DNA of 64,000 nt, taken from assembly GCA_938021205.1 (NCBI GenBank), contig CALIGI010000054.1:2149-66148 (forward strand), given 5' to 3'. Positions 7,130-43,430 of the stretch are shown here, one piece after another (the first letter of the stretch is position 1; every line of letters starts with the position of its first letter). Source of the DNA: an uncultured Pseudanabaenaceae cyanobacterium (GTDB lineage Bacteria > Cyanobacteriota > Cyanobacteriia > PCC-9006 > JAAUQQ01). The notes beneath the pieces are model-generated. The model did no database searches. It was not told the DNA's origin and saw only the letters and a program-made list of their open reading frames with translations. A program made the translations under genes and the position numbers.

Positions 7130-8168
7130 TCGTCTGGGATGACTCCTCTGGGGGGACCTGGTTGCGATGGATAGATTGGTCTCGACCCTGTTGCTTCGCT
7201 AAGTAAAGCGCTTGATCTGCGGACTGAAGGAGTTGAGCAGGGGGAATGCTTCCGAGGGGAGTACAGGTGCTGATACCTTGGCTGATGGTTACGTAAGGGC
7301 CCACGCTGGAGGCTTCGTGGTGGATCTCCAGCCGAGCAATTTCCGTTTGGATGAGATTGGCGATGTAGATTGCCCCCGCTGCATCCACGTTGGGCAAGAT
7401 AATGGCGAATTCTTCGCCGCCGTAGCGAGTCAGTAGATCCCCCGGACGCTTCAGCAAGCGTTTCACCTTCTGGGCAATCTGGACCAGGCAGGTGTCGCCA
7501 GCGGGGTGGCCATAGTGATCGTTGTAGGCTTTGAAGTAGTCGATGTCGAACAGGATTAGGGATAAGGGCCTGCGTTCCCGGCGTAACCTCAACCATTCTT
7601 GATTGAGGCGTTCGTCAAAGCAACGGCGGTTGCCGACCTGGGTGAGTCCGTCAATGTGGACGAGTTGTTGAAGTTTGTGGTTGTTTTCGGTGATGCTGCG
7701 GTTCTGCTGCTTGAGGGTTTGATTGGCCCGTTTCAGGTCGTGATTGGCGATTTGAAGGATTTGGGACTGCTGGTGAATGCGGAGATGATTATCAATGCGG
7801 GCTAACAGTTCTAGCCGTTCTAAAGGCTTTGTGAGATAATCCACACCGCCCGCTTCAAAGCCTTGAACTTTATATTGGGGTTCGTCCAATGCGGTCATGA
7901 AAATGACAGGTGTTTCACTGAGCTCGGAGCTGCTTTTGAGCGTTTTACAAAGTTTGAAGCCACTCATGTCGGGCAACATTACATCCAACAGAATGAGCTG
8001 GGGATTAACCAGTCTTGCGCTTTCGAGGGCGCTGGCTCCATCTGTTGCCACAGCGACCTCAAATTGCTCCTCCGAAAGAAAGGTGAGAGCAACACCGAGA
8101 TTATCAGGGTTATCATCTACGACCAATATGTTGGGGGAGGCTAGATTTGGGAAAGAGGCTAGGGGCAT
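7104..8168 (-). CDS. Response-regulator diguanylate cyclase (REC-GGDEF)
   Basis: REC (ILVVDD, LLDVMLP); DGLTQVGNRR; RYGGEEF; RxxD I-site (RPGD). Confidence 0.93.
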   Translation of the reverse strand: MPLASFPNLASPNILVVDDNPDNLGVALTFLSEEQFEVAVATDGASALESARLVNPQLILLDVMLPDMSGFKLCKTLKSSSELSETPVIFMTALDEPQYKVQGFEAGGVDYLTKPLERLELLARIDNHLRIHQQSQILQIANHDLKRANQTLKQQNRSITENNHKLQQLVHIDGLTQVGNRRCFDERLNQEWLRLRRERRPLSLILFDIDYFKAYNDHYGHPAGDTCLVQIAQKVKRLLKRPGDLLTRYGGEEFAIILPNVDAAGAIYIANLIQTEIARLEIHHEASSVGPYVTISQGISTCTPLGSIPPAQLLQSADQALYLAKQQGRDQSIHRNQVPPEESSQTIIPPHPAA

Positions 8169-32416: not shown

Positions 32417-33664
32417 TTGTGCATTGGCTTTGCCATGACCTCACCTCGCATTAGCCTCTGCATGATCGTCAAGGATGAGGCGGAAGCATTGCCTACTTGC
32501 CTCGGGAGCCTAGCCGCCGCAGACCCCGAAGGCTGGATTACCGAACGCATCATTCTTGACACAGGCTCCAGCGACGACACCGTTGCCATTGCCAAAAGCC
32601 TCGATTGCCAAGTTTTCCATTATGAGTGGAGCGACGATTTTGCGGTGGCTCGTAATCACTGCATCAGCCATGCAACTGGAGATTGGCTGCTAGTGCTTGA
32701 TGCTGACGAGCAGCTCGTGAGTCAGGCTCTAAGTTCACTGAAGCCGTTGCTCCAGCAACCGAATGTTGTCGCGATCAATCTCCTGCGCCAAGAAGTGGGA
32801 GCGGCTCAATCTCCCTATTCCATGGTGTCACGGTTGTTTCGCCGTCATTCAGAACTGGAGTTTCGTCGCCCCTACCACGCCATGATTGACGACAGCATGG
32901 CAGAGCTATTGCAGAAAGAGCCGGATTGGAAGGTTGTGGATGCATCCCATATTGCCATTCGCCACGATGGCTATCAAGCTGGAGCGATCGCGGCTCAAAA
33001 CAAGTTCATCCGTGCTCGTCAGGCAATGGAGTCTTACCTAAAGGAGAACCCCAAGGACGGCTACTGTTGCGCAAAACTCGGTGCTCTCTATGGCGAAGAA
33101 GGCAACTGGAGCCGAGGGATTAGCTTGCTAAATCGAGGGCTTAAATCCACAGAATTAGATGCTCCGAGTCGCTATGAGTTGCATTATCATCTAGCCATTG
33201 GCCATCGCCAGCTTGGTAATGTGGAGGCCGCAGCCCAGGCCTACCAAGCGGCCCTGGAAGTTGCAGTGCCAGACATTATTAAGTTGGGTGCCTTCAATAA
33301 TTTTGCTAGCCTGCTCCAGGCGGAAGGGCTACCGGAGATGGCCAGATCGCTGTATGAACAGGCGATCGCTATCGACCCCAACTTTGCTACAGCCCACTAC
33401 AACCTGGGCAAGCTCAAGCGGGAGCAGGGGGACCTGACGGGGGCGATTACCGCCTATGAAACGGCCCTATCCCTTACCCCAGAAGCCCCCGAGATTCATC
33501 AAAACCTGGGGGTGGCCCTACTCAAAGCTGGTGCATTGGACCAGAGCAAAAGTGCCTTTGAGCAGGCGATCGCCCTCTACGAGGTTCAGCAGCCCGACCA
33601 GGCTGAAACCCTACGCCGCCAGCTCGGGGAGCTTAATCTGTTCCCGCCAGGGCAAGGGCTCTAG
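32417..33664 (+). CDS. GT2 glycosyltransferase with C-terminal TPRs
   Basis: ISLCMIVKDE, DTGSSDDT, DDFAVARN, LVLDADE; TPRs (AHYNLG, IHQNLG). Confidence 0.92.
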   Translation: MCIGFAMTSPRISLCMIVKDEAEALPTCLGSLAAADPEGWITERIILDTGSSDDTVAIAKSLDCQVFHYEWSDDFAVARNHCISHATGDWLLVLDADEQLVSQALSSLKPLLQQPNVVAINLLRQEVGAAQSPYSMVSRLFRRHSELEFRRPYHAMIDDSMAELLQKEPDWKVVDASHIAIRHDGYQAGAIAAQNKFIRARQAMESYLKENPKDGYCCAKLGALYGEEGNWSRGISLLNRGLKSTELDAPSRYELHYHLAIGHRQLGNVEAAAQAYQAALEVAVPDIIKLGAFNNFASLLQAEGLPEMARSLYEQAIAIDPNFATAHYNLGKLKREQGDLTGAITAYETALSLTPEAPEIHQNLGVALLKAGALDQSKSAFEQAIALYEVQQPDQAETLRRQLGELNLFPPGQGL

Positions 33665-35803
33665 GACAATTTTCTCCGCTGCTTCAGCGTTAAGGGGTTT
33701 AGAGAACCAGTAGCCCTGAGCTGCGGGGCAGCCCATCCGCAGGAGGTGCTCCCGCTGGTGAGGTTCCTCAATCCCCTCGGCAATTACGCCCATACCAAGG
33801 TGGTGGGCTAGGTTGATCACCATGGCTGCAATTTCGCTATTCTCGCCATTGAGACCAATGTCGCTCACGAAGGCGCGATCTACCTTGAGGTGATCTAAGG
33901 GGAATCGATGGAGGTAGCTAAGACAGGAATAGCCTGTGCCAAAATCATCCAGAGCTAATTCAATGCCCCGCTGTTTTAAGGCCTGGAGTAAGGCCAGCAG
34001 CTCCTCTAAATCTTCCATGAAAATACTTTCGGTGATTTCGAGCTGGAGTCCCTGACGATTCCAGTCCTGAAGATCCAGTAAAAAATCCAAGCGCTGTAAA
34101 AAGTCAGGACTCTTGAGCTGTTGAATTGATAGGTTCACGCTCATCTTGAGATATTGGGCCTGGGGAGAGAGCTTGCGCCAGCGCAACAGCTGTTCCATGG
34201 CTTCCTGCAAGATCCACTCTCCCAGCGGCACAATTAAGCCCGTCTCTTCGGCAATGGGAATAAAATCAGCGGGAGAAACCATGCCTTTCTCTGGGCTAAA
34301 CCAACGTACCAAGGCTTCAAAGCCTAACAATGCGCCGGTATCCGTCGAGACAATGGGCTGGTAATGGAGCTGGAATTGCTCTGCTTCCAAGGCATGGCGC
34401 AAATCTAGCTCTAGCTGGAGCTTGCCCGAAACCTGTTCATACATGCCCCGGTCAAAGATGATGTAGTCTCCCTTGCGGCCCTGGGCCTTGGCGGTGTACA
34501 TCGCAATATCCGCATTGCGTAGGAGTTCATCCGCTGTTTCATACTGGGCTGTCCCCTGGGCAATGCCAATGCTGGCACTGGTAAAGAGCGGTTGTTCAAG
34601 GCCTAAGTCGAAGGGCTTTTTCAGCAAGGTGTTAATTCGCTCAGCCACATGAACGGCATCTTCGAGGGAACGAATTTCCTGGAGCAATACGACAAATTCA
34701 TCACCCCCCAGACGCGCCACAATATCGGAATCTCGCACCGTGGTTTCCAAGCGCCGCGCGATCGCCACGAGAAGGCGATCGCCGATGTGGTGACCCAGGC
34801 TATCATTCACGACCTTGAAGCGATTGAGGTCCAAAAACAATAGCGCAAAACAATGGTCCGGATTGTGCCGAGACATTTCGAACACATCGTCCAAACGCTG
34901 ACAAATAAAGGCGCGATTGGGTAAACCCGTCAGGTCATCGTGATTTGCGTTGTGACGCAGTTCAGCTTCCACCTGCTTACGGTGGGTCAAATCCATAAAC
35001 TGGCTAATTAAATAGGTTGGATGATCACGCTCCCCCTGCACAGATGCTGCTTGCAGCAACCCATGAATCTCTTCACCATCCTTTGCGACACAGCGGAGCT
35101 CTGTCTTAAAGTTGTTGATCTGACTTTCCGCTAACTGCTGCAAAGACAACATCGCCAGCTTCTTTTCATCCGGATGAATAAAATGATGCCAGCTCAGCTC
35201 TAATAGCTCGGTTTTGGTATGGCCCAACACCTCACAAAGAGACTGATTGACATCCACAAACTCTCCCTTCGCATCGGTGACGGCCATGCCAATGGGAGCC
35301 TGGCTAAAGATAGACCGGAACTGAGCTGAGGCTCGATGTCGTTCCTCTGCTTCCTTGACTAGGGCCGCAGTCCGCTGCTCAACTCGTTCTTCCAGCTCCC
35401 GGTTCAATTGGGCCAGGCCCGATTGAGCTGCCTGAAACTCCAAGTGGTGACGGACCCGCGCGAGGGTTTCACTGGTATCAATGGGCTTCGTGATGTAGTC
35501 CACAGCCCCCACCTCAAAGGCCTTAACTTTGTTAAGCCCCTCTGACAGCGCCGACATGAAAATCACCGGAATGTGAGCGGTTCGAGGATTCTCCTTGAAG
35601 CGACGGCAAGTCTCATAGCCATCAATCCCTGGCATCATCACATCCAAGAGCACCATTTGGGGCTCGATCATGTCGAGGATTTCCAGGGCCATTTCCCCCG
35701 TCTGGGCGATCGCTACTTCAAACCCAGCATCACTCAAAAGAGCACAAAGCACCTGAAGATTAGTAGGGGTATCATCAACGATCAAAATCGGTTGGGAAGC
35801 CAT
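33611..35803 (-). CDS. REC-PAS-GGDEF-EAL c-di-GMP signalling protein
   Basis: LLDVMMP; PAS; RLGGDEF with RDSD I-site; FEALVRW; LDDFGTGYS. Confidence 0.95.
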   Translation of the reverse strand: MASQPILIVDDTPTNLQVLCALLSDAGFEVAIAQTGEMALEILDMIEPQMVLLDVMMPGIDGYETCRRFKENPRTAHIPVIFMSALSEGLNKVKAFEVGAVDYITKPIDTSETLARVRHHLEFQAAQSGLAQLNRELEERVEQRTAALVKEAEERHRASAQFRSIFSQAPIGMAVTDAKGEFVDVNQSLCEVLGHTKTELLELSWHHFIHPDEKKLAMLSLQQLAESQINNFKTELRCVAKDGEEIHGLLQAASVQGERDHPTYLISQFMDLTHRKQVEAELRHNANHDDLTGLPNRAFICQRLDDVFEMSRHNPDHCFALLFLDLNRFKVVNDSLGHHIGDRLLVAIARRLETTVRDSDIVARLGGDEFVVLLQEIRSLEDAVHVAERINTLLKKPFDLGLEQPLFTSASIGIAQGTAQYETADELLRNADIAMYTAKAQGRKGDYIIFDRGMYEQVSGKLQLELDLRHALEAEQFQLHYQPIVSTDTGALLGFEALVRWFSPEKGMVSPADFIPIAEETGLIVPLGEWILQEAMEQLLRWRKLSPQAQYLKMSVNLSIQQLKSPDFLQRLDFLLDLQDWNRQGLQLEITESIFMEDLEELLALLQALKQRGIELALDDFGTGYSCLSYLHRFPLDHLKVDRAFVSDIGLNGENSEIAAMVINLAHHLGMGVIAEGIEEPHQREHLLRMGCPAAQGYWFSKPLNAEAAEKIVLEPLPWREQIKLPELAA

Positions 35804-36322
35804 GGTGATATATGCGCTGCGGAACGTTCGAGAGCAAGGGAGATTGCCCCAGAAGACAGCGCCTTGGAAGACAACGCCTTAGAAGACAACTTTTTCTCTG
35901 TGGGCCTTCATCAATATGTTTTTTCGTGAGGTAAAGAAAATCGCTATCCACCACGAACTTGCAAAGCTGTCCATCAGCAGCTCCCACGAGTGAGCCTCTC
36001 ATCCAAACTACGCAGACCCCTTGGGCTACAATCGTTTATTTCCCTAGGCATTGGGTTCGATGGGAAGTGATGCAACGCCCCATACCCAGGTTTCAATGGC
36101 ATGACTACTGAATTGTGCTACAAAGCCTCGGTTCGACTTGCTGAGGGGAATTACAGGGGAGAATAGGACGCCCTCCTGGAATTAGCTGAGACAATCTGTT
36201 GCTGTTGCAGCAACAATAGAGCCTGACTTCAGAAACGCTTCATATGCGTTAGCTGGCTCTAGGATAACGGTCCGTTTCTGCCGCCGACCCGCTGCTGACC
36301 CATTGTTTCGCAACCCAATCCC

Positions 36323-37087
36323 ATGGTCAATCTCTCTGCCGAACATCCTTCGCTGTCCCCGGTCTCCCCCGGCAAGGTTTATCTCCTCGGGGCTGGTCCC
36401 GGAGCCTTGGACTACCTCACCCTCCAGGGACAGTCTTGCCTCCAGCAAGCAGATGTCTTGATTTATGACGCCTTAATCGACGATCGCCTCCAGGCCCAAG
36501 TCTCTGAGCAATGCCAACTGATCCAAGTGGGCAAGCGAGGTGGACAACCCAGCACCCCCCAAGCTGCAATTAATCAGTTACTCGTGGAACAATGCCAGCA
36601 GGGCCAGCAGGTCGTTCGTCTCAAAAGCGGTGACCCTTTTATTTTTGGCAGAGCCAGTGCCGAAATCCAGGCTTTGAAAGCTGCGGGATGTGACTTTGAG
36701 ATTATTCCCGGCCTTTCCTCGGCCCTAGTGGCTCCCCTATTAGCAGGTATTCCTCTCACTGATCCCGTGCTGAGTCGAGGCTTCAGCGTCTTCACCGCCC
36801 ATGACATTGATGCCCTTAACTGGGAGGCCTTGACCCAGTTACCCACGCTGGTTCTGCTTATGGGGGGGCGTAAGTTGGGAGCCATTGTGCAGCAATTATT
36901 AGGGCATGGGCGATCGCCCTATTGTCCCATTGCCATCATTCGCTGGGCAGGACAGCCTGAGCAAGCCGTGATTGCCAGCACCCTAGAAGCGATTGAACAG
37001 CGCGTAGCCGAGCAAAACCTAGCGCAATTGTCGCCCTGCGTGATTGTGGTGGGTGAAGTGGTGAGTTTGCGGGAATTTTTGCAATAG
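36323..37087 (+). CDS. cobA: Uroporphyrinogen-III C-methyltransferase
   Basis: VYLLGAGPG, YDAL, VGKRGG, VVRLKSGDPFIFGR, IPLT. Confidence 0.95.
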   Translation: MVNLSAEHPSLSPVSPGKVYLLGAGPGALDYLTLQGQSCLQQADVLIYDALIDDRLQAQVSEQCQLIQVGKRGGQPSTPQAAINQLLVEQCQQGQQVVRLKSGDPFIFGRASAEIQALKAAGCDFEIIPGLSSALVAPLLAGIPLTDPVLSRGFSVFTAHDIDALNWEALTQLPTLVLLMGGRKLGAIVQQLLGHGRSPYCPIAIIRWAGQPEQAVIASTLEAIEQRVAEQNLAQLSPCVIVVGEVVSLREFLQ

Positions 37088-37088
37088 C

Positions 37089-37880
37089 TCAGCACTGCCT
37101 AGAGCGATCGTTCACGATCGCCGCAGTCAATCCCTCCAATGTATATTCCTGAGCTTCCACATCCACCCGCCCCAACAGCTCTCGGCAACTCTCCGAAGTC
37201 TGGGGGCCAATAGATGCGATCGCGATACCCTTCAAAATCTCCAACCAACTGGCTCCCAGCCCCTGCTCAACCAGCCGGACAAAATGCCGCACCGTCTTGG
37301 AACTGGCAAAGGTCACCACATCAATTTGCTGCGCGCGCAGCGCAGCCAGCACCGCATCATCTGCTTGCGCCGGACAGCGAGACTCATAGGCTGCCACTTC
37401 AACAACCTCAGCACCCCCTGCTCGAAATGCCTTCACTAAAACCTCTCGTCCGCCACTCTCTACCCGAGGGAAAAGAATTTTTTGCCCCGGCAACGGCTCA
37501 GGAAAATGGGCGGCCAAAGAATCCGCCACAAAACTGGGGGGAGTGAAGTCTGGGCTAAGACCATAATCGGCCAAAACAGAAGCTGTTTTTTTACCAATAG
37601 CAGCCAGCTTTAAACCGTATAAATTTGGACTTTTCGGACTCACTTCCTTTAGTCGGCTGGTAAAGAAAATTACCGCATTTGCCGATGTGAGAATCAACCA
37701 ATCAAATTGCTCTAGCTGGGCGATCGCTCCATCCAATTGCGCCCAACTAGAGGGTGGAGTGATGGCGATCGTCGGCATCTCCAGCACCTCCGCCCCTTCA
37801 TTTCGTAACAGTGACCCAAAACTACTCGCCTGACTGGCTGAGCGGGTCACCAAAATACGAGTCCCTGTCAAATCAGCCAT
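37089..37880 (-). CDS. hemD: Uroporphyrinogen-III synthase
   Basis: ILVTRS, FDWLILTSANAV, IGKKTA, ILFPR, VTFASSKTV, SIGPQTS. Confidence 0.94.
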   Translation of the reverse strand: MADLTGTRILVTRSASQASSFGSLLRNEGAEVLEMPTIAITPPSSWAQLDGAIAQLEQFDWLILTSANAVIFFTSRLKEVSPKSPNLYGLKLAAIGKKTASVLADYGLSPDFTPPSFVADSLAAHFPEPLPGQKILFPRVESGGREVLVKAFRAGGAEVVEVAAYESRCPAQADDAVLAALRAQQIDVVTFASSKTVRHFVRLVEQGLGASWLEILKGIAIASIGPQTSESCRELLGRVDVEAQEYTLEGLTAAIVNDRSRQC

Positions 37881-38227
37881 GTTCTTGAGCAGAGTGTGAT
37901 GAATTCTTTGCCTAGCAATTATTAGCCACAGTTAGCCTCTTGGCGACAAGAAACAACAAGACATATCGAGAAGGAGAGCTGAGTCAGGCTTTTGCGTAAT
38001 AAATCTGAAATATTTTATGACCGGATGATACAAATAGTCACCGTAAATACCAGTAGCCTTTTGTGAAGGCTGGCTAGTTCGTTCGTGAGCATTATTTAAC
38101 ACTCAAAATTCGATGGTATTGATTAGAGGGCAATGACGAGATGACCGATTGTCTCCATCACCATTGAATCAGAAAATCTTGTCAAAGTCTGGCTACCTAT
38201 CTAAATAACTTTATCTCAAGAATATCC

Positions 38228-41200
38228 ATGGCAACGCCAATTCGTCTAGAAGCCGAAAATTTTGACCTCACGACTTTTGGCGTAGAGGATTTACCCATTG
38301 GTGGCGTTGCCTCAGGCAACTCGGTGATTAACCTGAGTACAGCAGGAGCAAGAGGCAAAGCTCAAACCACCCTAAATCTTGAAGGTACCTATGACGTTTT
38401 CATTGGTTACTACGACGACCAAGATGGCCAGGGTCAACTGGGCGTCAGGCTAGGTGGCACAACTCTAAAATATTGGACCCTCAATAAGGACCTGGGCGAC
38501 TCCCCTGCCAATAGCTTTTACCGCAGGCAGCTGAGCAGTGATCTGTTGATCACTCCCGGTCAGAAGCTAGAAATCAGCGGCTTCAAAAAGGATAATGAAG
38601 ATATCCGCATCGACTACATCGAATTTATCCCCACTGGCGATACCGCCAACCCAGCCCAGCCCGGCGAATTGAGCTTCGGTGCCACCACTTACAACCTCAA
38701 CGAAGACGGCACAGCGACTAACCAAGTCACCGTTACTCGCAGCAACGGCAGCGATGGAGCTGTCTCTGCAACGGTTCAGCTCAACGGCGGCACAGGAAAT
38801 CCAGGAACTGCGACATCAGCTGACTATGGCACAGGAGAAATTTTAGTCAGCTTTGCCCCCGGTGAAACCAGCAAAACTGTCACTCTGCCCATCATCGACG
38901 ACAGTCTGGTGGAAGGTGCAGAGACGCTGAATATTAGCCTGGTCAATCCCGGTGGTGGCGCGAGCCTAGGGAGTCAGAGCCAAGCCATCGTCACCATCAC
39001 CGATAACGATGTTGCAACGCCCCCCAACCCGACTAATCCCGGTGAGACGATTATCCTGGAAGCGGAAGCGCTCACCCGTAGCAGTAACTACGTCATCGAA
39101 GATAGCCCGGTCGGTAGCCCGGTCGTCTCCCTCCAGGGGGGCATCGAAAATGATCATGGTACTGTCTCTACAACGCTAGATTTCGCTGGCAGCTACGATG
39201 TTTTTCTGACTTACTTTGACGAGAATGATGGCAATGCCCGCTTTGAAACCAGCATTGGCGGTTTGGCTCTAGATGAAGCCTTGCTCAATGCAGATCTAGG
39301 CAGCAATTGGATTACTACTGGCAATAGAGTGCGCCGTCAAGTCGGCAGCAGTATCAATATCAGCTCAGGCAGTAACTTTCAGGTCACGGGCTTTGAAGAT
39401 GCAGGGGAATATGCGCGTCTAGACAAGATTGAATTTATCCCCACCAGTGGCACTACTCCAGTAGAACCTACTCCAGAACCGGAACCTGCTCCAGAACCAG
39501 AACCAGAGCCAGAGCCCGGTAACGGTAACGGCGATAATAATAACAATGCAATCCGCATTGAAGCTGAAGACCTCAATCTCTCGGGGCACCGTATTCAGAC
39601 CAACAGCAACAGCTCTGGCGGTGAACTCATTAGCTTTGACGGTGGTAGCAGCAACGAGCGAGGCACTGCTAAGACAAGCCTGAACCTAAACGGCTACTAC
39701 GACGTTTTTGTCGGCTACTACGACCAGAACGATGGCGCTGCTCACATGTCTGTGACAGTGGGCGGAGACAAGCTCAAATACTGGGTTCTCAATCGCGACC
39801 AGGGCACGGCAGATGCCAATAGCAATAGCTTCATCCGCCGTCAGCTTGCCAGTTCTAAGCTCATCACTCCTGGGGCTGATCTAGAGCTCTATGGTCTAGA
39901 ACAAGACGGCGATAGCGCAGCTATCGACTACGTAGAATTTGTCCCCGTTGCTGGCACGACACCACCGCCCGCTCCAGAGCCTGAGCCCCCTTCAGAGCCC
40001 GAGCCTGCTCCAGAGCCCGAGCCTGCCCCAGAGCCCGAGCCTGCTCTTGGCAATGGCAATACCAACAACGCAATCCGTATTGAAGCTGAAGACTTAACAC
40101 TCTCGGGTCACCGCGTCCAAGCCAATAGCAGTAGCTCCGGCGGCGAGCTGATTAGCTTTGATGGCGGCAGCGACAGTGAACGCGGCACTGCAAAAACGAA
40201 TCTCAACCTCAATGGCGTCTACGATGTCTTTGTCGGTTATTACGACCAAAATGACGGCGCGGCCCAAATGTCTGTTTCTTTGGGCGGTGACAGGCTGAGG
40301 TATTGGGTGCTTAACCGTAATGAGGGCACCCCGAATGCTGACAGCAACAGCTTTATTCGCCGTCAGCTCGCTGATGCTCGCGTCATCACACCTGGCACGG
40401 AGCTAGAAGTCTATGGCTTGGAAAAGGACGGTGATAATGCTGCGGTTGACTACCTTGAATTTGTCCCGGTAGATCTTTCTACTCGCTCTGGTCGGTTGGA
40501 GTTTAGCCGGTCTAGTTACATCACCAACGAAGACGGCGGTCAATCTGCCCAAGTCACCATTAATCGCATTGCCGGACATGGTGGCACGGTCACCACAACT
40601 TTGAGCCTTACGGGAGACACGGCCACCGCAGGGAACGACTTCAATGGTGATCCCATTACGGTGACCTTTGCTCCTGGCGAAGAGAGCAAAACCTTGTTGA
40701 TCCCTGTCATCAACGATGCGACACCAGAATTTACCGAGCGGTTGACTCTACAACTTAGTGCTCCTAGCGGCGGTGCAACCCTGGGCGAAATTACCCAGGC
40801 CCAGTTCACGATTGTGGATGACGAAGAGAATCTAGAGCCCCGCCTTTATATCGGTGATGGCAAGGTGGATGAGATTAAAGCAGCCATTCAAGTGGCAGGC
40901 TCACACCACCAGCTTGCCTTCGCTGCCATGCAGGCCCGCGTGGACCAAAATGATTGGCAGATCTATGACGAAAACCTCAACGATGGCAATAAGAACTATG
41001 CTCGCACTTGGCTAGCCCGTGAAGCCTCGATGATGTATCAGCTCACGGACAATCCGATCTATGCGCAAACGGCCTACGAAGCCCTGCGTCAGGTTTACGA
41101 TGATCCTGGATTTACCAATGCCAATATCACCTCCGATAAAGGGTTAACCCGCGCCATGGTGGCTCTGGGCTTTGCTATTTCCTATGACTGGGCAGCCAAG

Positions 41201-42727
41201 GCTTGGACGCCGGAGCAGCGGGCCTGGGTGAAGGGTAAGCTGGTTGAGGGGCTTGATTCCTGGGAGAGCTTTAGCCATCCCAACGTGGCGGGGGAATTTG
41301 CCTCGAACTGGACGGCGGTGACACGCGGCGCAGAGATTGTGACGATGCTGGCCCTGGGTGAGGAAACGGTGAGGAGCGATCGCTACAACCTCATCAAGTC
41401 CCAGCTCAACCAGCACATCCTCAACGGTTACGGCCAGTACGGCTACAACCAAGAAGGTAACGGCTACCTCTCCTACGGTGGTAGCATCCTCGCCACCGCA
41501 GTTAATGCGCTGCGTAGCACGGGCGATACCGACCTAGATGCAGCGTTTGAATCCAAAGAATTCTGGAAGCTGCCGCTCTATGGCTCTGTCTTCAATGCAG
41601 ACCAGGAGTCTGTTCAATACGGTGTGGGCAATGTCCGCTTCAACGCCGAAGGCTGGACTAGCTTTGTCTTCGCGGACGTTCCTGAGGCTCAACGGGGCTA
41701 TTACAAATATGCCTATGACCTAGCCCGTGGTGTGAATAATCCCGCCGCCGATGGCGATAAGTTTGAAAATAGGCGAGCTGCCACTACTTGGTCCTTGATC
41801 TACTACCCCACGGAGGACATCACCGCCCTAGATCCCGACAGCAACCCTAGTGATTTCCAACATTTGCTCGCTAGCGATGATAAAGGTGGCTATTTTCTGC
41901 GTAACCGCTGGCAGGATGCCGATGACACGATTGTGTCCTTGATTGGTGATTTTGAGTCGGAGCCCCATGCCTGGAATCAGCCCGAAGCCTTCAACCTGGG
42001 ACTGTATGCCTATGGCGATCGCTTCATCGCTGGCCCCAGGGAGGAAACCAGCGCCAGCGCCTTTAGCACCCTGCTGATCGACGGCAACATCCCCAACCGA
42101 ACCGCGACGGGTCAGCGGGAATTCTATGAAGCCAATGCCACCGGTGGCTATGTCATCGTCGATGGCGGCACAGCCTATGCAGGCCTAGGCATCGACAGTG
42201 CAAAGCGTCACCTGGATGTGGAATTCAACCCCGACGGTTCGACCTTGCTCTCGACCCTGGATAAGGTTCGCGACACCAGCAGCCATACCTACACCTGGCA
42301 AATCAATGTGGGCGAATCCCTAGATGATGGCGGTATTAATGTCACCACGGGTAGCGAAGGTGGCTTGCAAACCTTCCTGCTCACCTCTGATGACGGCGAC
42401 TATGTCAAGGGTTGGGTCTTGGAGCCCAGCAACGTCACCTTGAGTGCAGGCGACCCACTGCAAATCACCGCTACAGGCGTGAATACGGACCTGTGGGTGG
42501 CCATGTTGACGGGTCAAGGCGCTGCCCCCACAGCCAATGTGGTGGGCAGTGGTTTAGATGCTGTACTGACGGTGGGAAGCAATCAAGTTTCCTACGATGC
42601 CAGTAGCGATCGCATCATCAGTACCTACCTAGGGGCAGTCGATCAGAGCAATCCATTCCAGGTGCTATCCAATAACCTGAATGGCGATAACCTGATCCCT
42701 GTTGATAGCAGCGGCGGATTGTTCTAG
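38228..42727 (+). CDS. Large modular protein: 4 CBM-like modules, 2 Calx-beta domains, putative polysaccharide-lyase (heparinase II/III-like) C-terminal region
   Basis: Four I.xEAE...YDVF..Y.D..DG...DY.EF.P modules; two Calx-beta-like segments (F...ET..K...PII.D...E..E); PE-rich linkers; helical then beta-rich C-terminal 630 aa. Confidence 0.8.
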   Translation: MATPIRLEAENFDLTTFGVEDLPIGGVASGNSVINLSTAGARGKAQTTLNLEGTYDVFIGYYDDQDGQGQLGVRLGGTTLKYWTLNKDLGDSPANSFYRRQLSSDLLITPGQKLEISGFKKDNEDIRIDYIEFIPTGDTANPAQPGELSFGATTYNLNEDGTATNQVTVTRSNGSDGAVSATVQLNGGTGNPGTATSADYGTGEILVSFAPGETSKTVTLPIIDDSLVEGAETLNISLVNPGGGASLGSQSQAIVTITDNDVATPPNPTNPGETIILEAEALTRSSNYVIEDSPVGSPVVSLQGGIENDHGTVSTTLDFAGSYDVFLTYFDENDGNARFETSIGGLALDEALLNADLGSNWITTGNRVRRQVGSSINISSGSNFQVTGFEDAGEYARLDKIEFIPTSGTTPVEPTPEPEPAPEPEPEPEPGNGNGDNNNNAIRIEAEDLNLSGHRIQTNSNSSGGELISFDGGSSNERGTAKTSLNLNGYYDVFVGYYDQNDGAAHMSVTVGGDKLKYWVLNRDQGTADANSNSFIRRQLASSKLITPGADLELYGLEQDGDSAAIDYVEFVPVAGTTPPPAPEPEPPSEPEPAPEPEPAPEPEPALGNGNTNNAIRIEAEDLTLSGHRVQANSSSSGGELISFDGGSDSERGTAKTNLNLNGVYDVFVGYYDQNDGAAQMSVSLGGDRLRYWVLNRNEGTPNADSNSFIRRQLADARVITPGTELEVYGLEKDGDNAAVDYLEFVPVDLSTRSGRLEFSRSSYITNEDGGQSAQVTINRIAGHGGTVTTTLSLTGDTATAGNDFNGDPITVTFAPGEESKTLLIPVINDATPEFTERLTLQLSAPSGGATLGEITQAQFTIVDDEENLEPRLYIGDGKVDEIKAAIQVAGSHHQLAFAAMQARVDQNDWQIYDENLNDGNKNYARTWLAREASMMYQLTDNPIYAQTAYEALRQVYDDPGFTNANITSDKGLTRAMVALGFAISYDWAAKAWTPEQRAWVKGKLVEGLDSWESFSHPNVAGEFASNWTAVTRGAEIVTMLALGEETVRSDRYNLIKSQLNQHILNGYGQYGYNQEGNGYLSYGGSILATAVNALRSTGDTDLDAAFESKEFWKLPLYGSVFNADQESVQYGVGNVRFNAEGWTSFVFADVPEAQRGYYKYAYDLARGVNNPAADGDKFENRRAATTWSLIYYPTEDITALDPDSNPSDFQHLLASDDKGGYFLRNRWQDADDTIVSLIGDFESEPHAWNQPEAFNLGLYAYGDRFIAGPREETSASAFSTLLIDGNIPNRTATGQREFYEANATGGYVIVDGGTAYAGLGIDSAKRHLDVEFNPDGSTLLSTLDKVRDTSSHTYTWQINVGESLDDGGINVTTGSEGGLQTFLLTSDDGDYVKGWVLEPSNVTLSAGDPLQITATGVNTDLWVAMLTGQGAAPTANVVGSGLDAVLTVGSNQVSYDASSDRIISTYLGAVDQSNPFQVLSNNLNGDNLIPVDSSGGLF

Positions 42728-42836
42728 CCTAAGCGGAAGCAAGACGGCCCCTTCCTCCTTCCAGAGCTTCGTCCTCAACAGGTCGAGCAAAAAGGCTGGG
42801 AGGGGGGGCCAGCATCTGGCCCTAGGCCCCAATCCC

Positions 42837-43430
42837 ATGTCCCAACGCAAAATTGGTCTCACTGGCGGCATCGCCACCGGCAAAACCACTGTTGCCGAAC
42901 ACCTTGCCACGGCCCATCACCTCCCCATCTTCGACGCTGATCTCTACGCCCGCGATGCTGTGGCCCCCGGCGATCCAATTTGGCAGCGCATCCTAGATCG
43001 TTATGGCTCCGAAATTCTCCTAGACGAACTCGCTCCAGCTCCTCTCAACCGTGCTCGGCTGGGGCAAATTGTCTTCCAGGACGAAGCCGAACGACAATGG
43101 CTCGAAGCCCAGATTCATCCTTATGTTGGCCAACGCTTCGATCAGGCCATCGCAGCCCAGGCTGAGGCAGCCATCATTGTCCTCGTCATCCCCCTGCTGT
43201 TCGAGAAAAAACTGACCCACCGTATCACCGAAACTTGGGTGGTGAGCTGCACCGATGCCCAGCAGCGCGATCGCCTCATGGCTCGTAATGGCTTAACCCT
43301 GGACCAGGCAGAAGCCAGGATTACCGCCCAAATGCCGCTTTCCGAAAAATGCGATCGCGCCGATGTAGTCCTAGACAATAGCCAGACCCTAGCTCACCTA
43401 ATCCAACAGGTCGATCAACAACTCACCTAA
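42837..43430 (+). CDS. coaE: Dephospho-CoA kinase
   Basis: IGLTGGIATGKTTV, DAD, LNRARLGQIVF, IHP, IPLLFE, RITAQMP. Confidence 0.95.
   Translation: MSQRKIGLTGGIATGKTTVAEHLATAHHLPIFDADLYARDAVAPGDPIWQRILDRYGSEILLDELAPAPLNRARLGQIVFQDEAERQWLEAQIHPYVGQRFDQAIAAQAEAAIIVLVIPLLFEKKLTHRITETWVVSCTDAQQRDRLMARNGLTLDQAEARITAQMPLSEKCDRADVVLDNSQTLAHLIQQVDQQLT

Follow-up and report, generated by a model that had tools for sequence, protein, structure and literature searches.

In the cyanobacterial genome studied here, the genes for uroporphyrinogen-III C-methyltransferase (SUMT, cobA) and uroporphyrinogen-III synthase (hemD) lie tail to tail on opposite strands, their stop codons separated by a single base. 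This arrangement is a genuine, old and genus-wide micro-inversion of one gene that lies beside an insertion, i.e., an ordinary change of gene order. Its history probably comprised two steps, a tandem split of the two coding regions and a later inversion of hemD in the ancestor of the genus. Positions given below refer to the window, the 64-kb stretch of DNA analyzed here, which derives from a contig (G000:C54) of a marine MAG that is 79% complete and consists of 273 contigs (Table 1). An initial annotation of this DNA had already described the two halves and their orientation; it had, however, drawn fission and inversion together into one event and had omitted the 4.5-kb inserted gene that adjoins the flipped hemD.

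Table 1. Genes and junctions around the convergent cobA-hemD pair (window positions).
Feature	Position	Strand	Remarks
GT2-TPR gene, left flank	32417-33664	+	Pfam
Response-regulator PAS-GGDEF-EAL gene, left flank	33611-35803	-	Pfam
cobA (SUMT, uroporphyrinogen-III C-methyltransferase)	36323..37087	+	254 aa; C-terminal end ...VVVGEVVSLREFLQ, followed by the stop
Spacer of 1 base between both stop codons, left inversion junction	37088		basis: sequence
hemD (uroporphyrinogen-III synthase)	37089..37880	-	263 aa; N-terminus MADLTGTRILVTRS
Spacer ahead of hemD, from which hemD and the inserted gene diverge	37881..38227	-	putative hemD promoter inside
1499-aa repeat protein gene	38228..42727	+	Pfam: two Calx-beta stretches and an Endotoxin_C-like N-terminal match
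coaE (dephospho-CoA kinase)	42702..43430	+	PF01121, 192 bits

Identity and predicted activities of the two genes

The CobA translation matches PF00590 with 157.6 bits over profile positions 1-211 of 212 and, above the curated cutoff of 185, the SUMT model TIGR01469 with 271.1 bits over positions 1-237 of 238, a full-length match to the family; NF004790 is likewise exceeded (258.5 bits, cutoff 198). An N-terminal glycine-rich SAM-binding motif of the form GxGxG, known from class III methyltransferases, defines the family and is present here as GAGPG within VYLLGAGPGALDYLT (residues 19-33). The nearest solved structures, CobA (1s4d) and the C-terminal domain of CysG (1pjq), belong to the same domain family and are matched over the full length. 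HemD covers positions 4-230 of 231 of HEM4 (PF02602; 201.6 bits, cutoff 27.5), again a full-length match. Its scores stay below the cutoffs of the lineage-specific NCBIfam equivalog models (best NF004583, 134 versus 432), which is expected for a divergent family and is no argument against the Pfam-based HemD assignment. The solved homologs 4es6, 3mw8 and 3re1 share the domain family over the full length and are distant (E 1e-10 to 1e-12). These comparisons give no sign of a functional difference from the solved HemD and CobA/SUMT enzymes. Across 15 cyanobacterial HemDs, 75 alignment columns are invariant, among them Tyr165, which sits in the block A164-Y165-x-S167-x-C169-P170 and is the putative match of a conserved tyrosine in the active-site region reported for Anacystis nidulans HemD (Roessner et al. 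2002, as relayed in PMC7242693).

Only one hemD match was found in the genome of the window (G000), and the gene is the sole copy detected in each of the five species-level genomes of the genus (G000-G004). Pairwise comparisons within the genus gave dN/dS values of 0.05-0.08 for cobA and 0.11-0.16 for hemD at dS of 0.8-2.0; both genes are under purifying selection. We are fairly confident that they are ordinary, functional tetrapyrrole genes, encoding a predicted SUMT and a predicted uroporphyrinogen III synthase. CobA would methylate uroporphyrinogen III at C2 and C7, and HemD would cyclize hydroxymethylbilane with inversion of ring D, the latter prediction receiving indirect support from the single copy and from the dN/dS of 0.11-0.16.

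Distribution and age of the convergent layout

Cyanobacterial fused CobA-HemD is a single polypeptide of about 500-590 aa, whose halves are orthologous to CobA and HemD of the window and whose gene is likewise followed by coaE. Here, by contrast, the two domains occupy ORFs on opposite strands without a linker, and the open frame around hemD spans 280 aa as opposed to 490-590 aa in fused genomes. The initial annotation had equated the plus-strand gene with the N-terminal half of such a protein, ending at the start of the linker, and had placed the start of the minus-strand gene at the usual beginning of the HemD half. An alignment with nine fused cyanobacterial proteins confirms both points: CobA terminates exactly at the beginning of the variable linker, and the HemD start lies two residues ahead of the conserved post-linker motif (P)L-x-x-x-T-[IV]-L-V-T-R. 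The reported tail-to-tail spacing of 1 nt is also correct, with the TAG of cobA at 37085-37087 and the TGA of hemD (tca on the plus strand) at 37089-37091. Identity to fused members amounts to 50-65% for CobA and 52-64% for HemD, and each half proved orthologous to the fused family in concatenated and single-gene trees, in which both are nested among fused-family members. A further form, with separate but co-directional genes (cobA>hemD>), occurs in G005, G006, G012, G038, G013, G009 and about 14 more genomes. CobA C-terminus and HemD N-terminus of these tandem genes are equivalent to those of the window. The tandem genes lie 24-108 nt apart and could be co-transcribed, whereas hemD of the window points the other way, ends right next to the stop codon of cobA and is preceded by an upstream region unlike theirs.

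To place the layout within the class, we surveyed 151 species-representative genomes from 36 families and 85 genera. Fused genes, recognized by a hemD-containing open frame of about 490-950 aa, were found in 100 of them, in agreement with the initial statement that many cyanobacteria carry the fusion. Adjacent, co-directional genes account for 20 genomes, and in 11 the orthologous cobA is unlinked, i.e., located elsewhere or on another contig. Another 18, including all small-genome members of family f2, possess the second SUMT paralog only, without a hemD-linked cobA. One genome was left unassigned, and a single one, G000, is convergent. For a second sample, 80 named loci were fetched, and 100 loci were classified (79 named and 21 from the genome search) as 74 fused, 10 tandem, 8 unlinked, 4 at a contig edge and 4 convergent, the last all belonging to this genus, one member of which carries the label 'uncultured Pseudanabaenaceae cyanobacterium R2_Bin_Bin_165_1'. 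The convergent layout is genus-specific in the sampled genomes and loci. Families f2, f3, f6 and f7 contain unfused hemD only. A full-text literature search returned no description of this pattern of fusion and fission in cyanobacteria; its one pertinent result was the citation of Roessner et al. (2002) on the conserved tyrosine.

The survey also brought up several irregular loci. Very recent fissions or assembly errors are possible at G072:C217:4626-6168, a read-through frame with one in-frame TAG, at G133:C12:528287-529870, where a cobA frame open for 540 aa lies next to an out-of-frame hemD, and at L054 (Okeania sp. SIO2F4), a split pair that groups within the fused genes of Okeania, Trichodesmium and Dapis. 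CobA-HemD open frames far above the usual 500-590 aa occur in G092, G045, G063 and G124 (660-950 aa) as well as in L103 and L109 (787 and 753 aa). We considered the C-terminal extension of L109 as a third enzyme and rejected this option, the tail being of low complexity, acidic and rich in Pro/Glu/Thr/Ala. At G128:C74:720-1430, the open frame around an orthologous cobA not linked to hemD measures 484 aa, and this cobA may have a different fusion partner.

The convergent pair recurs with the same neighbors in all five genomes of the genus, which are separate assemblies, and is not particular to the genome of the window. That close relatives might share it was raised with the initial annotation as a point against a split and inversion on this line, and at the genus level they do share it; the sister genera are tandem. 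Stop-to-stop spacers measure 1 nt in G000, G001 and G004, 7 nt in G003 and 32 nt in G002. Because dS within the genus, at 0.8-2, is near saturation, the layout is old. An artifact of assembly or binning might be suspected in a MAG of such completeness and fragmentation, all the more as a Logan unitig boundary falls at 37851-37880, at the hemD start. Yet the same layout and flanks were assembled separately for five species-level genomes. Moreover, a Logan contig from the marine metagenome run X1 (depth 19.6) extends unbroken over 35800-37880 and crosses the junction between the two stop codons. At the hemD start it shares 30 nt with a second contig (depth 20.2), which reaches as far as 38600, and no alternative joints were found among Logan contigs. 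Misassembly, a concern voiced at the outset, is thus extremely improbable.

Two further observations concern variation at the locus. In one member of the genus (L024, G003:C33), hemD, the GGDEF-EAL gene, the M48 peptidase gene and the gene for the large repeat protein each appear as two neighboring tblastn pieces in different frames, which look like indel errors of that assembly rather than pseudogenes. Low-depth contigs that stem from related organisms in this and other marine samples (run X1 record 4 and run X3 record 11) match the cobA 3' end (36971-37086) at about 87-90% identity and diverge right past the cobA stop; the junction sequence is variable in close relatives, just as within G000-G004.

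Inversion, insertion and a probable earlier fission

We calculated a maximum-likelihood tree from concatenated CobA and HemD sequences (100 rows, SH-aLRT support); all gene trees are unrooted. The four convergent rows form one clade (99, starred) inside the clade of their family (97, starred), where tandem and unlinked members make up the sister group. Together with the next relatives, the tandem-split G012 and G013 and a Prochlorothrix MAG, they constitute a 10-row clade (93) that holds no fused member. Fused rows surround this split clade (82-86) and occur on both sides of the midpoint root. The family is also kept together in the single-gene trees, with support of 74 for HemD and 93 for CobA. 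At least nine changes of the fused label are required by the tree. Split forms lie inside starred fused clades in the cases of Okeania SIO2F4 and Floridaenema, some of which may be assembly frameshifts; the nesting indicates that fissions recur.

The putative fission is a separate event, older than the inversion. In contrast to the initial proposal of one coupled event, the tandem split is already present in G005, G006 and other families. A step from fused to split at the deep node is the most parsimonious reading and, in our judgment, a likely one. Its direction at the base of the 10-row clade leans on parsimony and on prior cyanobacterial phylogeny, the clade holding the split group being, as we assume, not basal among cyanobacteria.

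The inversion itself is visible in gene order, which we compared by mapping the window genes onto the loci of relatives with tblastn. In the tandem sister genera G005 and G006, the order reads GT2-TPR(+)/GGDEF-EAL(-)/cobA(+)/hemD(+)/coaE(+)/w43741(+)/M48 peptidase(+). Both flanks in G000-G004 consist of the same genes in the same order and orientation, and the differences are confined to hemD, now on the minus strand, and the added gene for the 1499-aa protein. In many other families, too, coaE is the next gene after hemD or the fusion, and its orientation is retained here. With the flanks unchanged and hemD alone flipped, the rearrangement is therefore a single-gene inversion with breakpoints essentially at the hemD ends. 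Inversion of hemD in place, as stated in the initial annotation, is supported. In a third member of the family, G007, hemD and cobA are on different contigs, so that tandem (G005, G006), unlinked (G007) and inverted (this genus) arrangements all occur within one family. A repeat search over 35800-38300 for breakpoint scars returned just short inverted pairs at chance level, none of them bracketing hemD, and no IS remnant.

The 1499-aa gene separates hemD from coaE in G000-G004 and is not present at this position in G005, G006, G012, G009, G021 and G031; in many named loci, too, coaE directly follows hemD without it. Its product contains Calx-beta repeats (109.6 bits), an Endotoxin_C-like match at residues 30-136 and Pro/Glu-rich linkers. 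Length and repeat content of the protein differ among the species, and the G001 counterpart matches piecemeal at 37-68% identity. GC content is uniform over the region (0.49-0.58), and the only hint of foreign DNA that we found for the insertion is a 3.6-kb stretch without HIP1, the classic highly iterated palindrome of cyanobacteria. HIP1 (GCGATCGC) occurs in 79 copies in the window versus 1.2 expected from shuffles, and the longest HIP1-free stretch, 37728-41375, includes the first 3 kb of the inserted gene. We also considered HIP1 palindromes as a recombination substrate. They are abundant, but none is located at either junction, and the idea was set aside as pure speculation.

The history that we favor starts from a conserved cobA-hemD-coaE cluster, in which the majority of cyanobacteria have CobA and HemD fused into a single protein. 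Before the family diverged, the fused gene would have become two co-directional genes. In the ancestor of the genus, hemD alone would then have flipped, with breakpoints almost exactly at the gene ends, leaving cobA and hemD tail to tail at a distance of 1-32 nt. The 4.5-kb gene for the 1499-aa repeat protein would have come to lie between the hemD start and coaE, and hemD would now be transcribed from a putative genus-specific promoter in the 347-bp spacer that it shares with the inserted gene.

Each of the two steps has a competitor. For the first, the polarity could be reversed: separate genes would be the older state on this line, fusion would have occurred repeatedly elsewhere, and only the inversion would remain to be explained here. 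In prokaryotes, fusions are more often reported than fissions, the trees are unrooted, every classifiable member of the 10-row clade is split, and whole families (f2, f3, f6, f7) have unfused hemD only. We nevertheless regard this scenario as unlikely, given that fused forms account for 100 of the 151 species and are found to either side of the midpoint root, that the split clade is nested among fused rows (82-93), that the end of CobA and the start of HemD coincide exactly with the borders of the linker, and that fission does happen, as in Okeania SIO2F4 and Floridaenema.

For the second step, the original hemD might have been lost and a cyanobacterial hemD re-inserted in reverse, perhaps together with the 1499-aa gene. 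We retain this scenario because support for the family in the HemD-only tree is moderate (74). The flipped gene directly adjoins the genus-specific insertion, its upstream region has no counterpart in the sister genera, and HemD of the genus is 64-67% identical to the rest of the family versus 62-64% to the best outsiders, a marginal gap. Even so, the best HemD-only tree still places the genus within the family, as does the concatenated tree (97, starred); the gene sits exactly at the ancestral position with cobA and coaE on either side, and GC is uniform across the region. Re-insertion would moreover demand that an essential single-copy gene be lost and gained anew, when a single inversion is enough. 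The trees favor inversion in place over re-acquisition, if not decisively, and we give the latter only a small chance.

Transcription of the pair and metabolic coupling

Uroporphyrinogen III synthase is required for chlorophyll, heme and bilins. Since hemD is the sole copy of a gene whose product is needed for all of these, the flipped gene must be expressed. Its inversion means that hemD is no longer co-transcribed with cobA; this loss is certainly an effect of the rearrangement. The five genomes of the genus differ in the 347-bp spacer upstream of hemD except for its last roughly 60 nt, in which CTAATAAT is invariant in all five and the following roughly 45 nt are invariant or nearly so. This conserved block is absent from the G005, G006 and G007 loci. 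A consensus scan points to a -10-like AATAAT (37923-37918) and a -35-like TCGCCA (37946-37941); the conserved leader spans 37881-37935. The frequency of promoter-like sites in the region does not exceed shuffles (3 versus 1.8 +/- 1.3). The initial annotation had credited hemD with a newly gained promoter of its own. Of this claim, the genus-specific upstream region and the conserved -10-like box stand as observations, and the gain itself is what we infer: hemD probably has its own promoter, acquired at or after the inversion.

Terminator-like sites are likewise as frequent as in shuffles (3 versus 3.3 +/- 1.8), and none lies between cobA and hemD. One candidate, a GCGATCG-ttca-CGATCGC hairpin at 37105-37122, was rejected as a conserved terminator, as it is not kept in G001, G004, G002 and G003. 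An Rfam scan of 35700-38400 yielded no credible structured RNA or riboswitch. As the gap between the two genes is too small for a terminator and no conserved one lies nearby, their transcripts may overlap; with stop codons 1-32 nt apart and no detectable terminator, each could perhaps enter the coding region of the other. The locus was found in DNA metagenome runs and in no RNA run. Conceivably, the flip was selected as a reciprocal link between cobA and hemD by antisense transcription or transcriptional interference, a speculative idea to which we assign a low probability. If it were true, hemD, which serves all tetrapyrroles, would at the uroporphyrinogen III branch point work against cobA, which serves the branch to precorrin-2, and antagonistic control would stand in place of the 1:1 coupling of the fused protein. 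A regulatory convergent overlap of this kind would add a minor new example of antisense control where metabolic pathways part.

The inversion had also been interpreted initially as an uncoupling of uroporphyrinogen III synthesis from the siroheme/B12 branch. A second SUMT paralog bears on this interpretation. In the genome of the window it is encoded at G000:C83 (locus L115), 7132-7932 (+), is 43% identical to the hemD-linked cobA product and distinct from it, and scores higher against TIGR01469 (318 bits). The gene is divergent from sulfate ABC transporter genes (sbp and cysTW, a fused CysT/CysW permease). Such a paralog is present in 75 of the 75 cyanobacterial genomes searched for cobA, at 34-46% identity. 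It is likely the SUMT of the siroheme branch; its sulfate-transport neighbors suggest this role and, for the hemD-linked cobA, a separate and dispensable one. We consider uncoupling a weak idea because the tandem split in relatives had already ended coupling at the protein level, because the second paralog exists beside sulfate-transport genes and because 18 of 151 species lack a hemD-linked cobA.

The finding has little significance beyond the comparative genomics of cyanobacteria. For annotation, it cautions that cyanobacterial 'cobA-hemD' is not uniformly a fusion, and the class as a whole shows many switches between fused, tandem and unlinked forms. Within this field, the locus offers a clean, stepwise natural example of the fate of a fused metabolic gene after splitting and of how its linkage decays. 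It illustrates that inversion can affect one essential single-copy gene by itself, the breakpoints falling right at the gene ends, and that the gene can be retained in that state for a long time.
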